A stretch of 64,000 bases of DNA from positions 2,305-66,304 of the forward strand of contig JAAZGM010000134.1 in NCBI GenBank assembly GCA_012511245.1, in the 5' to 3' direction. A program made the position numbers and the translations under genes. The first letter of the stretch is position 1. Each line of letters opens with the position of its first letter. Below are positions 42,417 to 47,386 of the stretch, piece by piece. Source of the DNA: Methanomicrobiales archaeon. Lineage in GTDB: Archaea; Halobacteriota; Methanomicrobia; Methanomicrobiales; Methanoculleaceae. Under the pieces are notes generated by a model. That model saw only the letters and a program-made list of their open reading frames with translations, was not told the origin of the DNA and did not search any database.

Positions 42417-43304
42417 ATGAAGGTCTTTCTCGCCGAATACTCTGTATGCAACGATCCCGAGCTCGCACCGGAGGGCGCCGCCATGCTTGCCGCCATAAGC
42501 GGGAGTTTCGAGCGGTGCGGTTACGACGTGGTGACCCCGGAGCGTCCTGACTTCGAGGGCGAGATCCGGCGTCTCGCGCCGGGGTGCGATCTCGGGCTGG
42601 TCATCGCTCCCGACCACCTGCTCTTCCGGTATACGCATATCCTTGAAGGGTTGACCCACAATATCGGATGCGGGAGCATGAACGCGGCAGTCTGCGCAAA
42701 CAAAAAGAGGACTGCAGAGATCCTCTCGCGGAACGGGATAGCCGTTCCCCCCGCTGCCGGGGAGGGGCGGAAGGTTGTCAAACCGGTGGCAGGATGCGGC
42801 GCTCTCGGTGTCCGGCTGACGGAGGAGGAGCCGGGAGCCGGCGAGTTTGCACAGGCCTATGTCGAGGGCGAGGCGCTGAGCGTGAGCCTCGTGGGGAGCC
42901 GGGTGACCGGCAACGTCTGTGAATTCTACTCAGGCGCTCCGCCGCTCCTGCTCGCCGTCAACCGGCAGGAGATCGCCATCACGGATGATGGGAGGTTCGT
43001 CTACCTCGGAGGAGAGACTCCTGTCCATCCTGACCGCGAGGAGGAGATCGTCAGTGCCGCTGTCCGGGCGATGAACGCCCTCGGGTGCCAGGGATACACC
43101 GGGATCGACGTCATTGCCGGGGAGCAGATCTATGTCGTGGATGTCAATCCGCGGCCCACGACCAGCCTCACCGGCATCGCGGCGGTCATGGGGGAGGAGA
43201 TCGCCGAGATCCTTGTTAAGGCGTCGCACGGCGAGGCGCCGGCGGAGGTGCACCTCTCCGGGAGGGTGCGGTTCGACAAGAACGGGGAGCTCTGCCGGCT
43301 ATGA
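42417..43304 (+). CDS. mfnD: ATP-grasp tyramine--L-glutamate ligase-like (methanofuran biosynthesis)
   Basis: EG.AML, VIAPD, KP..GCG, DVNPRPTTS; adjacent to an mfnF-like gene. Confidence 0.75.
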   Translation: MKVFLAEYSVCNDPELAPEGAAMLAAISGSFERCGYDVVTPERPDFEGEIRRLAPGCDLGLVIAPDHLLFRYTHILEGLTHNIGCGSMNAAVCANKKRTAEILSRNGIAVPPAAGEGRKVVKPVAGCGALGVRLTEEEPGAGEFAQAYVEGEALSVSLVGSRVTGNVCEFYSGAPPLLLAVNRQEIAITDDGRFVYLGGETPVHPDREEEIVSAAVRAMNALGCQGYTGIDVIAGEQIYVVDVNPRPTTSLTGIAAVMGEEIAEILVKASHGEAPAEVHLSGRVRFDKNGELCRL

Positions 43305-44230
43305 TCGGGATCGATATCGGCGGTGCGAACCTCAAGATTGTTGACGATACCGGTGTGCAGATCCATTACTGTCCGCTCTGGCAGGGCGCACCCCTTGCCG
43401 ATCTCCTCGAACTGTATGCAGGAAGACCTGCTGCCGTGGTCATGAGCGGGGAGCTCGCCGACTGCTTTGCAAGCAAGATGGACGGCATCCGATGGATCGT
43501 CGGAGCGGTCCAGGAGGCCATCCCCGACGCCGTCTTCTACGGCACCGATGCCCTGTTCCATACCCGGCCGGATCCATCCCTTGCCGCCGCGAACTGGCTG
43601 GTCTCGGCCGACTACCTGCGGGAGGACCATGCCGATGCGGTCCTCCTCGACGTGGGGAGCACCACTGCCGACATCATCCCCCTGAACCGTTTTGAGGACC
43701 TCAAGGGGCTGACCGACACCCGGCGGTTGCAGGAGCACTACCTGGTCTACACCGGCATGCTCCGGACGAACGTCGCGACGCTGGTCTCGTCGGTCACGCT
43801 CGACGGGACGCCGACCCCGGTGAGCACCGAATATTTCGCCGCGAGCGCAGACGCCCATCTCGTTCTCGGCCACATATCTTCCGGAGATTATACCTGTCCT
43901 GCACCCGATAACGGCGAAAAGACCCCTGATGCGGCACTCCGGAGGCTAGCCCGGGTAGTCTGTGCTGATCTCGACGAGATCGGGCGAGATGGAGCCTTAA
44001 CGGTCGCGCGTCGGTTCTGGGATGCCCAGCGGACGCTGATCGTCCGCGCGGTGGAGGATGCAATGACCCGGAGCGGGGCCGGACGGTTGATCACGGCCGG
44101 GATCGGTGCGGACCTCTTTGCCTGCGAACTCAGCGGCACTACGCTTGACGATGTGATCGGGGAGGTCTCGGATGCATTGCCGGCATACGCGGTCAGGGAA
44201 GTGGCACTACGGCGCGCCGGTGGCACCTGA
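43301..44230 (+). CDS. mfnF: hydantoinase/oxoprolinase-like methanofuran biosynthesis protein
   Basis: GIDIGGANLK, MSGELADCF, AAANW, DVGSTTADIIP, LARVVCAD. Confidence 0.78.
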   Translation: MIGIDIGGANLKIVDDTGVQIHYCPLWQGAPLADLLELYAGRPAAVVMSGELADCFASKMDGIRWIVGAVQEAIPDAVFYGTDALFHTRPDPSLAAANWLVSADYLREDHADAVLLDVGSTTADIIPLNRFEDLKGLTDTRRLQEHYLVYTGMLRTNVATLVSSVTLDGTPTPVSTEYFAASADAHLVLGHISSGDYTCPAPDNGEKTPDAALRRLARVVCADLDEIGRDGALTVARRFWDAQRTLIVRAVEDAMTRSGAGRLITAGIGADLFACELSGTTLDDVIGEVSDALPAYAVREVALRRAGGT

Positions 44231-44469
44231 CCCTTCTCCTGCTCGCGGCGTCGATCGGTATCACGGCCGTATCGCTGGCGCTAGGCTATCCGCTCTTTCT
44301 TCTTTTCCTCTTCATTCCGTTGATCCCGCTTCTTGGAAGATCCCCCGTCGTGAAACGGTGTCCTGCCTGCGGATGGGAAACCGCAGGCAACGAGCGCTTC
44401 TGCCCCTACGATGGGACGCCGCTCGTGGTTGAGGATGAAGGTGGCAAGGTTCAGCAGGGAGAGCGGTAA
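44227..44469 (+). CDS. small membrane-anchored Zn-ribbon protein (80 aa, CTG start; not in ORF track)
   Basis: Manual translation (M)TLLLLAASIGITAVSLALGYPLFLLFLFIPLIPLLGRSPVVKRCPACGWETAGNERFCPYDGTPL...; CTGA overlap with the mfnF stop. Confidence 0.65.
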   Translation: MTLLLLAASIGITAVSLALGYPLFLLFLFIPLIPLLGRSPVVKRCPACGWETAGNERFCPYDGTPLVVEDEGGKVQQGER

Positions 44470-44907
44470 CAGAAAACCAAAGAGGTCGGTTGCGGGGATC
44501 CCTCCAAAGTCGCGAGAGGCATAGTTCCGGATCGTCCCCCGGTCGACGACGATCCCCATCGCCCGGAGGTGCTGTGCCACCTGGTTGAAGGGCATCTGCT
44601 GCGCGAGGAGGAGACAGAGATCGACGATGGGCGCTCCAAGACGGGTCTCGGGGTAAAACGGTGCATCTGCATAACAGAGGGCGCCGCAGTCCCGGCAGTA
44701 AAACCGTTTCACGAAGACCCGGATGGTGCGCTCCTGTCCATCATCAAGCATGACGGCAAATCGTTTTGCCCGCATATCATGGCCGGTCACCTGACCGGAA
44801 CACGACGGGCAGAGATCGATATCGGTGAATATCACGCCATCCATCGCTGTAAGAGCGCTCCCCACCAGGTCGGCGAGCATCGGCGGTATCAGCACTGTCT
44901 TCCTCAC
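44281..44907 (-). CDS. Zn-finger + HTH protein resembling a transposase N-terminal module
   Basis: CPSC...RFYCRDCG, then HTH-like MPFNQVAQHL..GIVVDRGTIRNY; GGAGAGG RBS before the GTG. Confidence 0.7.
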   Translation of the reverse strand: MRKTVLIPPMLADLVGSALTAMDGVIFTDIDLCPSCSGQVTGHDMRAKRFAVMLDDGQERTIRVFVKRFYCRDCGALCYADAPFYPETRLGAPIVDLCLLLAQQMPFNQVAQHLRAMGIVVDRGTIRNYASRDFGGIPATDLFGFLLPLSLLNLATFILNHERRPIVGAEALVACGFPSAGRTPFHDGGSSKKRDQRNEEEKKKERIA

Positions 44908-45319
44908 ACGAGCACCTCTCCCCTGTGATTGTTATGGGAGGGTTATACATCCACTGATAATAACATCTCCCGTCAAACGGGAGTGCCCGGGTGGCGCGGT
45001 CTTTCCTGCCCGCTCCGTCCCCGGCCTGGTTGCGATCTTGCTTCTGAATACCCGGGACCGGCCGCCGCGCCCGGGTAGGTGTGGTATAACCGGTCAACTC
45101 TTTTATGCCGCAACCGGTCTGACACCATCGTATGAGCGCCCTGCGATGCAGGGCCGACATATAACTCCTGCAACCGAACCGGCCGGTGGTACCTGAGATC
45201 ACTATCCTCCTGGGGAAAGAAGAATCGCACAACCCACACTTATTCATCAAAAAACGGTGTGTTAATCACTAGTGTTAAATATTTTAATCGTCTATATAGG
45301 TGTATCCGAGGTTTTTACC

Positions 45320-47386
45320 ATGGATCTCAAGTATGTACAGACCACATGCCCGTACTGCGGTACTGGGTGCAGCTTCAATCTCGTCGTGAAGGATGGGAAG
45401 GTTGTCGGCACACAACCTTACACCCGTTCTCCGGTCAACGAGGGAAAAGTCTGCCCCAAGGGCACTTATGCTCACGAGTTCGTGAACAGCCCGGACCGCC
45501 TCACAAAGCCGCTCATCAAGAAGGACGGCAAATTTGTTGAATCGACCTGGGACGAAGCCTATGACCTGATCGCACAGAAGTTCAAGTCATACAAGCCCGA
45601 CGAGTTCGTGGCTCTCTCATCGGCTCGCGTCTCAAATGAAGAAAACTACCTGATGATGAAGTTCGCCCGCGGCGTCATGAAGTCCCGGCACGTCGACCAT
45701 TGCGCCCGGCTCTGCCACGCATCCACCGTCGCCGGCCTCGCCGCATCGTTCGGCTCCGGCGCGATGACGAACTCCATCGGCGATATCGCCGAATCGAAGT
45801 GCGTCTTCGTCCTCGGGTCAAACACACTCGAACAGCACCCGCTGATCGGGCGGAAGATTGTCCAGGCGAAGCAGAATGGCGCAAAGGTCATCTGCGCCGA
45901 CCCGCGCTACACCCCGACCGCCCGGCTGGCCGACCTCTACATGCCTTTTGTCTCCGGTACTGATGTCGCTCTCCTGAACTGTATGATGCAGGAGATCATC
46001 AAGAACGGCTGGGAAGACAAGGAGTTCGTCGCAAACCGCACGAAGGATTACGATAAACTCAAAGATGTCGTCATGAAAGAGGACTACAGTCCTGAGAACG
46101 TCTCGAAGATCACCGGCATCCCGGTCGAGCAGCTCAAGCAGGCCGCTGAGATATTCGGCACCACGAAACCCGGCGCCATCCTCTACTCGATGGGTATCAC
46201 CCAGCATACCGTCGGTGTCGACAACGTCCGGTCGGTTGCAAACATCCAGATGCTCACCGGCAACCTGGGCAAGCCCGGCACTGGTGTAAACGCGCTGCGT
46301 GGCCAGAACAACGTCCAGGGCGCCTGCGACATGGGTGCACTTCCAGTCGTCTTCACCGGCTACCAGAAGGTCATCGACCCGGTCACCCACAAGAAGTTCG
46401 CCGACGCCTGGGGCTTCCCTAATGGCATATGCGAGCCGAAGAACGGCTACGAGGTCACTGTTATGATGGATGTCCTGACCGACAACCCCGGTGAACTCAA
46501 GTGCATGTATGTCATGGGCGAGAACCCGATGATCTCCGACCCGGACATCAATCACGTCCGGCACGCCCTTGAGAGCCTGGAGTTCATGGTCGTCCAGGAT
46601 ATCTTCCTGACCGAGACCGCCGAACTCGCCGATGTCGTTTTACCGGCCGCATGCTACGCGGAGCGGGGCGGTACCCAGACCTCCACTGAACGGCGTGTCC
46701 AGATGTGGAGAAAGGCACAGGACCCGCCCGGTGAGGCGAAAGAAGACTGGCAGATCATCAGTGAGCTCGCAGCAAAGATGGGCTACGCCGCCCAGTTCCC
46801 CTACCAGGACATCGAGGAGATCTTCAACGAGGTCGCCGCCCTCACGCCGTCTTACCATGGCATGAACTACGAGCGGCTCAACAGGCCCGAAGCGCTCCAC
46901 TGGCCCTGCCCGACCGAAGAACACCCTGGAACCCCGATCCTGCACCGCGAGAGGTTCGCACACCCTGATGGTCTCGGCATCTTCGCCCCGATCGAGTGGA
47001 AACCCCCGGCGGAAGTCCCTGATGCGGAATATCCGTTCGTGCTCACGACCGGGCGTATCCTCTGGCACTGGCATACCGGTTCCATGACCCGCCGGTCCGC
47101 AACCCTCGACTCCGAGGTTCCTACCGGATGGATCGAGATCAACCCCGAGGACGCAAAGGCGCTCGGTATCCAGAACAAAGAGATCGTCCGTGCAACCTCC
47201 CGCCGCGGCACTGTGAATGTCCCCGCGAAGGTGACCCCCGACATCATGAAGGGCGTCATGTTCATGCCGTTCCACTTTGCCGAGTGTGCAGCAAACGTCC
47301 TGACGAACAACGCGCTCGACCCGATCGCAAAGATCCCTGAGTTCAAGGCCTGTGCTGTGAAGGTCGAGAAGATCACGGAGGCCTGA
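45320..47386 (+). CDS. fdhA: formate dehydrogenase alpha subunit (Cys type)
   Basis: CPYCGTGC, DHCARLCHAST (Cys, no in-frame TGA), LRGQNNVQG, PEFK.CAV. Confidence 0.95.
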   Translation: MDLKYVQTTCPYCGTGCSFNLVVKDGKVVGTQPYTRSPVNEGKVCPKGTYAHEFVNSPDRLTKPLIKKDGKFVESTWDEAYDLIAQKFKSYKPDEFVALSSARVSNEENYLMMKFARGVMKSRHVDHCARLCHASTVAGLAASFGSGAMTNSIGDIAESKCVFVLGSNTLEQHPLIGRKIVQAKQNGAKVICADPRYTPTARLADLYMPFVSGTDVALLNCMMQEIIKNGWEDKEFVANRTKDYDKLKDVVMKEDYSPENVSKITGIPVEQLKQAAEIFGTTKPGAILYSMGITQHTVGVDNVRSVANIQMLTGNLGKPGTGVNALRGQNNVQGACDMGALPVVFTGYQKVIDPVTHKKFADAWGFPNGICEPKNGYEVTVMMDVLTDNPGELKCMYVMGENPMISDPDINHVRHALESLEFMVVQDIFLTETAELADVVLPAACYAERGGTQTSTERRVQMWRKAQDPPGEAKEDWQIISELAAKMGYAAQFPYQDIEEIFNEVAALTPSYHGMNYERLNRPEALHWPCPTEEHPGTPILHRERFAHPDGLGIFAPIEWKPPAEVPDAEYPFVLTTGRILWHWHTGSMTRRSATLDSEVPTGWIEINPEDAKALGIQNKEIVRATSRRGTVNVPAKVTPDIMKGVMFMPFHFAECAANVLTNNALDPIAKIPEFKACAVKVEKITEA

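Follow-up and report, generated by a model that had tools for sequence, protein, structure and literature searches.

The locus described here lies in a stretch of 64,000 nucleotides (nt) from a Methanomicrobiales archaeon (assembly GCA_012511245.1, contig JAAZGM010000134.1, positions 2,305 to 66,304 of the forward strand), which we call the window and whose own numbering is used throughout. On its plus strand, an mfnD-like gene (42417..43304) and an mfnF-like gene (43301..44230) are followed by a small frame for a membrane protein with a zinc ribbon, proposed here as a gene of 86 codons plus TAA (44209..44469). Converging on it from the minus strand is P0002, a gene for a zinc-finger and helix-turn-helix (HTH) protein of 208 amino acids (aa), which runs from a GTG start at 44907 to a TAG stop at 44281–44283 and is itself divergent from the plus-strand gene fdhA (45272..47386). 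Taken as a whole, the evidence makes it reasonably probable that the small frame is an ACG-started membrane zinc-ribbon gene, partly dual-coded with the convergent minus-strand gene. The observed basis of this reading is conservation, frame-specific substitution patterns and codon statistics, from which we infer the use of ACG, coupling, zinc binding, membrane topology and the functions of both proteins.

A first-pass annotation of the window had pointed to an 80-codon plus-strand frame, missed by open reading frame (ORF) callers, with two transmembrane (TM) helices and a zinc ribbon. This description was confirmed by the open frame itself and by the helices and ribbon that AlphaFold predicts for it. 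The frame read from 44227 has 80 sense codons and ends with TAA at 44467–44469, and from stop to stop it is open from 44149. Residue and codon numbers of the small protein given below (e.g., C45, D62, codons 52–60) follow this 80-aa numbering. Since no ATG, GTG or TTG occurs in the frame before TTG 44320, ORF callers miss the gene or shorten it to 49 aa, and the standard ORF list indeed holds only a 49-aa piece.

To assess its conservation, the window was compared with 16 loci from genome searches and 80 loci from GTDB contigs, giving a comparison set of 97 loci. Homologues of the plus-strand peptide, whose absence would have spoken against the gene, were abundant: the 80-aa translation matched 40 of 41 Methanomicrobiales genomes, with identities of 65–86% within Methanoculleus and 42–63% in other families. 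Positional variability was measured among 16 Methanoculleus loci, where the most variable position is mfnF position 3 up to 44226, the third position of the small frame over its codons 1–66, and position 3 of the minus frame from 44425 on. Ratios of nonsynonymous to synonymous substitution rates (dN/dS), calculated by the Nei-Gojobori method per region and per frame, are 0.30 for plus-frame codons 1–18 and 0.157 for codons 20–66. With matches in 40 of 41 relatives and third codon positions that vary most, the plus frame is conserved far beyond chance, and it is almost certainly a real gene.

Despite this conservation, only 18 called homologues were found among 5.8 billion proteins, none of them from NCBI and all labelled hypothetical; ATG-started homologues are called in metagenomes. 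One metagenomic call of 110 aa (P0141) is an ACG-type homologue over-extended to an upstream in-frame ATG, which adds about 30 residues of out-of-frame mfnF and illustrates how the absent start corrupts automatic annotation. A profile search recovered more distant proteins of 70–96 aa with the same plan of hairpin and ribbon, while no fused or longer forms were found among longer proteins. Since mfnF stands immediately 5' of the small gene in 95/97 loci, the earlier placement of the frame as the third gene behind mfnD and mfnF holds well beyond the window, and judged by gene order the small gene appears as the third cistron after mfnD-mfnF throughout Methanomicrobiales. Relatives in two other families of the phylum are unlinked to mfnF, or no mfnF was found there; the family is thus not confined to methanofuran synthesis. 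In one of these families, a GC-rich locus (L155:1492-2120) carries a distant relative directly 3' of a gene for a PadR-like winged-helix regulator, so that an association with a DNA-binding protein is seen again, in another guise. In another family (L160:729-2577), an 86-aa ATG-started relative lies 21 nt behind a prephenate-dehydratase-like gene, and its 3' end is overlapped for 77 nt by the next same-strand gene, which is HAD-like.

The AlphaFold model of the small protein shows two hydrophobic helices (residues 2–19 and 23–36, 44230..44334, plus strand), which would form a membrane hairpin, followed by a small beta ribbon across C45-x2-C48 ... C59-x2-D62 and a disordered end. Third positions of the plus frame across the helix region have variabilities of 0.27–0.44, and the FIP motif of the protein is invariant. 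The ribbon CPACG...FCPYD (44359..44412) has Cys, Cys, Cys and Asp at its ligand positions. C45, C48 and C59 show little or no variation, and 93/96 loci have D62 (44410–44412). Thus, the motif consists of CPAC followed by CPYD rather than of two CxxC knuckles with four Cys ligands; the second knuckle is CPxD, with Cys in the Asp position in one locus (L115) and in several distant relatives. At this knuckle, the sequence is CPCDG in relatives from one further family of the phylum (e.g., L160). None of the Pfam zinc-ribbon families PF09297, PF13240, PF12773, PF13248 and PF24460 reached its gathering cut-off, the best scores being 22.8 bits (cut-off 24.8), 19.9 bits (cut-off 25) and 17.5 bits (cut-off 27.3). 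The ribbon may bind zinc and, if so, its Cys3-Asp site would be unusual. Because the N-terminus is basic and the ribbon would be cytoplasmic, the protein most likely resides in the membrane with both termini in the cytoplasm. The tight coupling of its gene to mfnF hints at a role as a stoichiometric partner of MfnF or as its membrane tether; a complex prediction for MfnF and the small protein, both supplied as alignments, gave a score of 0.00, which weighs neither way.

We then analyzed the 189-nt antisense overlap with the minus-strand ORF 44281–44907, whose frames and coordinates are as first reported. The two frames are in register, with plus position 1 opposite minus position 3, and an in-register antisense stop requires CTA, TTA or TCA in the plus gene. 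As CTA and TTA together account for 3.7% of the Leu codons in the neighbouring genes and the ribbon is almost without Leu or Ser, an open minus frame is expected, and its mere openness is not beyond chance. The minus-strand gene is convergent downstream of the small gene in 91/97 loci, and its ORF enters the small gene in about 84 of these 91, with overlaps of 42–270 nt. Overlap length shows no correlation with GC content (rho = -0.08), and base composition by itself thus does not account for the overlap. The first-pass annotation had allowed for a strain-specific stop loss if orthologues of the minus-strand gene ended before the overlap; the overlap proved not to be strain-specific, but in 4–5 loci the genes do not overlap and the minus-strand gene ends before the small gene.

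The same annotation had proposed a genuine long dual-coding overlap, to be checked by dN/dS in each frame. Averaged over 44284–44424, dN/dS is 0.157 in the plus frame and 1.03 in the minus frame, while at 44425–44466 it is 1.06 in the plus frame versus 0.41 in the minus frame. Accordingly, only a part of this proposal was retained: about 9–14 codons appear to be constrained by both frames, but the last 14 codons of the plus frame and the last ~25 of the minus frame are tails that appear unselected. The plus-strand tail (codons 67–80, 44425..44466) reads over the end of the conserved minus-strand core, and the core's terminal residues LPLSLLNLA (to about residue 155) are the antisense of the small protein's last codons. 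In the AlphaFold model, plus-strand residues 73–80 have a predicted local distance difference test (pLDDT) score below 50, and the length of the small gene in the relatives ranges between 66 and 86 codons, a single outlier having 97. The minus-strand tail (residues 184–208, 44284..44358) is antisense to TM2 and the linker. In this segment, third positions of the plus frame, which are first positions of the minus frame, vary freely (0.27–0.36), and minus-strand residues 181–200 are modelled as a disordered tail with pLDDT values of 38–45. Past approximately residue 183, the minus-strand stop falls wherever the plus gene uses CTA, TTA or TCA, and relatives without the overlap terminate 6–23 residues past the equivalent of LPLSLLNLA.

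Our first conclusion, that both tails are pure by-products, was revised in the light of sliding-window and per-codon analysis. In the sliding window, third-position variability of the plus frame drops to 0.06 at 44377–44412, compared with 0.27–0.44 elsewhere. The core of this segment (44380..44406) comprises plus-strand codons 52–60 (T-A-G-N-E-R-F-C-P) opposite minus-strand residues 176–168 and lies within a wider zone of dual constraint at 44374–44415. The per-codon analysis covered 96 loci, in which ACC, ACA/GCA, GGC, GAG, CGC, TTC and CCC are near-fixed within codons 52–60, while neighbouring four-fold sites are free (G49 is GGA in 40/82 loci). The changes that do occur are silent on the minus strand: ACA or GCA at codon 53 gives Thr or Ala on the plus strand and Cys either way on the minus strand, and CCG or CCT at P46 gives Arg either way. 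P60 is CCC in 80/81 loci, corresponding to Gly on the minus strand.

As a control, 82 loci in which the minus-strand ORF spans the ribbon were contrasted with 11 in which the minus-strand gene is missing or ends earlier. Where the plus residue is the same, codons 52–60 match the consensus codon in 593/620 cases (95.6%) in the overlapping loci and in 16/57 (28%) in the no-overlap loci; for flanking codons the match is 67–76% and 24–45%, respectively. Synonymous diversity across codons 52–60 is 0.01 in Methanoculleus, 0.04 in Methanoregulaceae and 0.07 in the other overlapping loci, versus 0.45 in the no-overlap group. The minus-strand residues concerned, G168-A-E-A-L-V-A-C-G176, are modelled as a helix at 168–175 with pLDDT values of 73–83. 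Since the codon freeze is present with the overlap and absent without it, true dual coding over a short segment of ~27–42 nt (9–14 codons) is quite likely, as judged from these substitution patterns. In such an arrangement, 44425–44466 would be selected solely for the minus-strand protein, about 44374–44415 for both products (the second knuckle of the zinc ribbon and the short C-terminal helix GAEALVACG), and 44284–44358 solely for the small protein.

The same data could be read without any dual coding, the minus-strand tail past about residue 156 being unselected and the freeze at 44380–44406 reflecting a nucleotide-level element or codon preference: a signal for the 3' end or stability of the minus-strand mRNA, a site bound by a protein, or a codon preference peculiar to certain sites of the ribbon. 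The minus-frame dN/dS of 1.03 over the whole segment, the widely varying minus-strand stop, the 4–5 loci without overlap and the openness of the antisense frame expected from codon usage all agree with it, as does a possible hairpin at 44364–44389 (z = -1.96). However, the freeze vanishes exactly where the minus-strand ORF does not cover the ribbon, the tolerated codon changes are those that are silent on the minus strand, and AlphaFold models the opposite residues as a helix with moderate confidence; we therefore consider a purely nucleotide-level explanation unlikely. The hairpin itself, a 9-bp GC-rich stem (CCUGCCUGCGG ... CCGCAGG) spanning the first ribbon knuckle, with its z-score determined against shuffles, was rejected as the cause of the frozen codons because it is not conserved and shows no covariation, a mismatch of TGC with ACA being its commonest pairing. 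A search of 43800–45400 against Rfam gave no match, and a scan for bacterial-type promoters and terminators found nothing relevant. Among four RNA runs, only one (X1) yielded contigs, which derive from an unstranded metatranscriptome and a relative of 90–95% identity and bridge 44227–44579; the other three (X2–X4) yielded none. The antisense cross-regulation between the methanofuran operon and the putative regulator that the first-pass annotation had raised would be a further possibility.

To locate the start of translation, we compared the sequences ahead of TM1. A canonical start, mostly ATG and in some cases GTG, lies 5–7 codons before TM1 in 31/97 loci, some of which form an ATGA overlap with the mfnF stop. 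No ATG, GTG or TTG precedes TM1 in 65/97 loci, and all 65 have an ACG there, which in the window lies at 44209..44211. It follows a Shine-Dalgarno (SD)-like motif, GGAAGTG (44197..44203), for which the relatives' consensus is GGAGGTG and the closest relative (L049) reads GGAGGT. In the 68 loci with an in-frame motif, the codon 5 nt after GGAGGTG is ACG in 64, ATG in two, and CCG followed by GTG in two; one locus (L123) reads GGAGGTAGCAGT-ATG and another (L069) GGAGGTAGCAGT-ACG. ATG starts of long ORFs in the genome of the window likewise peak 4–8 nt past GGAGGTG. The stretch from the upstream in-frame stop to the conserved coding region is thus free of canonical starts but has a conserved ACG in initiation context.

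The constraint imposed by MfnF does not fully account for this ACG. Its CG falls in a conserved MfnF Arg codon, while its A is the third base of a variable mfnF codon (CTA in 30 loci, TTA in 14, CGA in six, GTA in four, GGA in three and ATA in three, with CAA, AAA, GAA and TCA as further suppliers). Since CTA and TTA are locally rare, as is A at third positions in the neighbouring genes (10%), the A appears to be held by something other than MfnF. Where an outgroup MfnF ends in ...AVRELALRRGV and is not followed by a small gene, this place reads TTG AGG and hence has no ACG. Moreover, an N-terminal (M or T)-x-x-(x)-W is common to the ATG and ACG types, which indicates that the small frame is translated upstream of CTG 44227. 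The place of the first triplet of the SD motif is taken in several loci by a small-frame TGA (TGA GGT GGC), which bounds the start from the 5' side. From these patterns we judge that translation probably starts at ACG 44209, giving 86 codons.

Initiation would accordingly take place at ACG 44209–44211, five bases past a GGAGGTG-type SD within the last mfnF codons (R-E-V-A-L-R...), which harbour both elements. The two genes are co-directional with overlapping stop and start regions: the mfnF stop lies 17–19 nt past ACG 44209, and the ACG-started gene overlaps mfnF by 22 nt. Ribosomes terminating on mfnF 17–19 nt downstream would probably aid the ACG start through translational coupling. On an MfnF tree (FastTree, weakly supported), the state changed between ACG and canonical starts at least ~7 times, with the ACG state found in Methanomicrobiaceae, Methanospirillaceae and several clades of Methanoregulaceae. 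A change from ATGA to ACGN is a single T-to-C transition, by which the canonical start and the mfnF stop are both lost and MfnF is lengthened.

The first-pass annotation had placed the start at the CTGA junction (44227..44230), where CTG 44227–44229 overlaps the mfnF stop TGA 44228–44230. The overlap is real, but a start at ACG 44209, 18 nt upstream, is more likely. For a start at CTG 44227, a ribosome ending at the mfnF TGA would restart on CTGA and yield an 80-aa product; archaeal genes overlapping by 4 nt have been shown to use termination-reinitiation (Huber et al., 2019, PMC6728339). The window and 51 of the 65 ACG-type loci have CTGA, and four more have TTGA, ATGA or GTGA. In eight loci, however, the overlapping codon is CTA, GTA or TTA (within CTAA, GTAG, TTAA or GTAA), two mismatches from ATG, so that a restart at the stop-overlapping codon is not general. 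The conservation of CTG is itself uninformative, as its TG is fixed by the mfnF stop and its C/T by Leu. Furthermore, a restart at CTG leaves the invariant ACG and the A at the mfnF third position unexplained. The ATG-type relatives share both the conserved Trp, which lies two codons 5' of the CTG, and the (M/T)-x-x-W pattern, pointing to translation upstream of the CTG. We regard a restart at CTG as improbable.

It is very unlikely that the small frame is instead a C-terminal extension of MfnF made by programmed -1 frameshifting near the SD-like motif. SD-like motifs stimulate frameshifting in some bacterial genes, and such a motif lies just upstream here; the small frame is in the -1 register of mfnF and has 26 open codons before CTG. 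However, there is no conserved slippery heptamer, and the bases between SD and ACG vary. A small-frame stop at the SD leaves only 3–4 codons for a shift in several loci, 31 relatives use an ATG or GTG of the small gene itself, served by a distinct SD and in some cases past an intergenic gap, and no fused forms occur among longer proteins. The chance that only the 49-codon ORF from TTG 44320, the first canonical start, is translated into a soluble ribbon, or that the ACG is edited to AUG by C-to-U conversion as in plant organelles, where editing makes start codons, is close to negligible, given that codons 1–31 evolve as coding sequence (dN/dS 0.30, third positions most variable, FIP invariant), that TTG 44320 is unconserved in relatives and that mRNA editing is not known from archaea, although no search aimed at it was made. 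The relative's RNA contigs begin at 44227, which places the ACG outside their reach.

Several points weigh against an ACG-started, partly dual-coded gene. A review gives AUG, GUG and UUG as the only archaeal start codons (PMC7531240), and the SD of the window is one mismatch from the consensus. The CG of the ACG is also accounted for by the MfnF Arg codon, only the A requiring the small frame, and in the 51/65 ACG-type loci with CTGA a restart at CTG may occur. With a minus-frame dN/dS of 1.03 across 44284–44424, the claim of dual coding hangs on a stretch of few codons. Because the loci share ancestry, Fisher p-values make the case look stronger than it is, and the consensus was drawn from the overlapping group. 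In addition, the same sites could be frozen by a nucleotide-level element that goes along with the minus-strand gene, and in relatives in which the minus-strand gene is missing or ends earlier its helix is dispensable. Finally, the RNA data are unstranded contigs from a relative of 90–95% identity. We advance only tentatively the fullest form of the reading, in which ACG is a selected initiation codon in an archaeal order, kept in several Methanomicrobiales families and repeatedly swapped with ATG with a shift of the MfnF end, and 27–42 nt code at once for a zinc-ribbon knuckle and a functional helix.

The genes upstream were assigned from profile searches. The mfnD-like product scored above the cut-off for Pfam ATP-grasp_3 (103 bits) and reached 95.8 bits against NCBIfam MfnD_Meth NF040722, the tyramine-L-glutamate ligase equivalog with a cut-off of 400. 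The 309-aa mfnF-like product scored 295 bits against TIGR03123 (cut-off 244) and 195 bits against the equivalog NF040623 MfnF (cut-off 520), defined as (4-{4-[2-(gamma-L-glutamylamino)ethyl]phenoxymethyl}furan-2-yl)methanamine synthase. The mfnD stop and mfnF start share a classical ATGA at 43301–43304, and mfnD, mfnF and the small gene are all chained by overlaps. Orthologues of mfnF turn up across methanogen orders. In other orders (L137-L140, L142, L146, L148), the next gene, which often overlaps mfnF by 4 nt, is lipoprotein-like and encodes ~330 aa with a signal peptide and a Cys lipobox; in further genomes of other orders, an MfnE-like amino-acid-kinase gene takes this place.

The minus-strand protein has a conserved core (residues 1–156, 44440..44907) with a CxxC...CxxC finger and a helical HTH-like domain, ending in LPLSLLNLA; dN/dS of this core is 0.163, and pLDDT exceeds 90 at about residues 11–160. 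The gene was found in 17/18 other Methanomicrobiales genomes sampled, with a single weak match in 132 other genomes of the phylum, and each genome has one full-length match in fixed synteny. Foldseek against the PDB gave no match for the protein at E <= 0.001, and structural alignment gave weak matches to HTH, winged-HTH and transposase DNA-binding domains (Z 2–2.9). IS66 and ISL3 transposase models matched with 26.4 and 23.6 bits at cut-offs of 180, over only profile positions 11–128 of 370–387; an identity as such a transposase was rejected because of these scores, the absence of a catalytic domain and the length of 208 aa. The N-terminus of FdhA is divergent from the gene in at least 80/97 loci. 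The listed fdhA start is GTG 45272, but the orthologues in most loci align only from residue 15–17, so the true start is probably ATG 45320, giving MDLKYVQTT... Because the gene is order-restricted and divergent from fdhAB, its product is probably a DNA-binding regulator and, as the gene is also single-copy, a domesticated DNA-binding regulator of fdhAB would be the simplest reading. In three Methanoregulaceae loci (L068, L070, L124), the gene seems broken, with 54–102 codons open from the match, and the frozen codons of the small gene are still the consensus ones; these cases may reflect recent pseudogenisation or assembly frameshifts.

Almost all public annotations thus miss a conserved gene of an important methanogen order. 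As it lacks a canonical start and faces an annotated gene on the opposite strand, this gap reflects a situation that gene callers systematically overlook. Should the ACG start be confirmed, the locus would be a clear example, drawn from comparison, of an archaeal start codon that is conserved but not NTG, and its natural series of ATG and ACG variants would be useful for the study of start-codon stringency and translational coupling. With the no-overlap lineages as a built-in control, true dual coding can be told apart from antisense frames that are open only incidentally in GC-rich genomes. Moreover, the locus unites genes of methanofuran synthesis, a small membrane protein and a probable regulator beside formate dehydrogenase, and may bear on formate-dependent methanogenesis in digesters.

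Near-cognate starts include ACG and CUG in eukaryotes and viruses and the AUU of bacterial infC. The ACG described here resembles them in being one base from AUG, in its strong context and in its conservation where relatives carry AUG. The evidence here is comparative. An ACG start is not known to be established in archaea, for which a review lists AUG, GUG and UUG (PMC7531240), and in Haloferax ribosome profiling about 30% near-cognate candidate sites were put aside (PMC7261190). With archaeal coupled pairs joined by ATGA or TGATG (PMC6728339), the locus shares co-directional genes, overlapping stop and start, an SD inside the upstream gene, a canonical start in about one third of the relatives and the classical ATGA in loci examined (e.g., L061-L064, L068, L073). 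It differs in the ACG held by the window and 65/97 loci, in an overlap of 13–34 nt instead of 4, and in a coupling that is predicted from sequence.

Antisense overlapping genes, such as olg of Pseudomonas aeruginosa (PMC8850804; reviewed in PMC7457138), likewise combine opposite-strand reading with synonymous-site constraint in one frame. Unlike those pairs, in which a young ORF lies within an old gene, the present arrangement would be a 3'-to-3' interlock of two old conserved genes, and its dual constraint is short (9–14 codons) and conserved across an archaeal order. Among zinc ribbons, Zn_Ribbon_1 (PF13240), DZR (PF12773), Zn_ribbon_NUD (PF09297) and DUF7575 (PF24460) share the pattern CPxCG ... 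FCPx(C/D)G over ~20 residues, and a canonical CxxC second knuckle is seen in L115 and some distant relatives; the small protein is set apart by its scores below gathering, by Asp as the putative fourth ligand in 93/96 loci and by its fused N-terminal membrane hairpin. The minus-strand protein comes closest to DUF6431 and to the N-terminal zinc-finger/HTH modules of IS66 (NF033517) and ISL3 (NF033550) transposases, with whose DNA-binding N-termini its residues 30–129 align weakly; it is single-copy and syntenic. In contrast to these transposases, it scores only 23–26 bits against cut-offs of 180 and has no catalytic domain or repeats; because it keeps a fixed chromosomal position by fdhAB across the order, it resembles a domesticated DNA-binding module rather than a mobile element.

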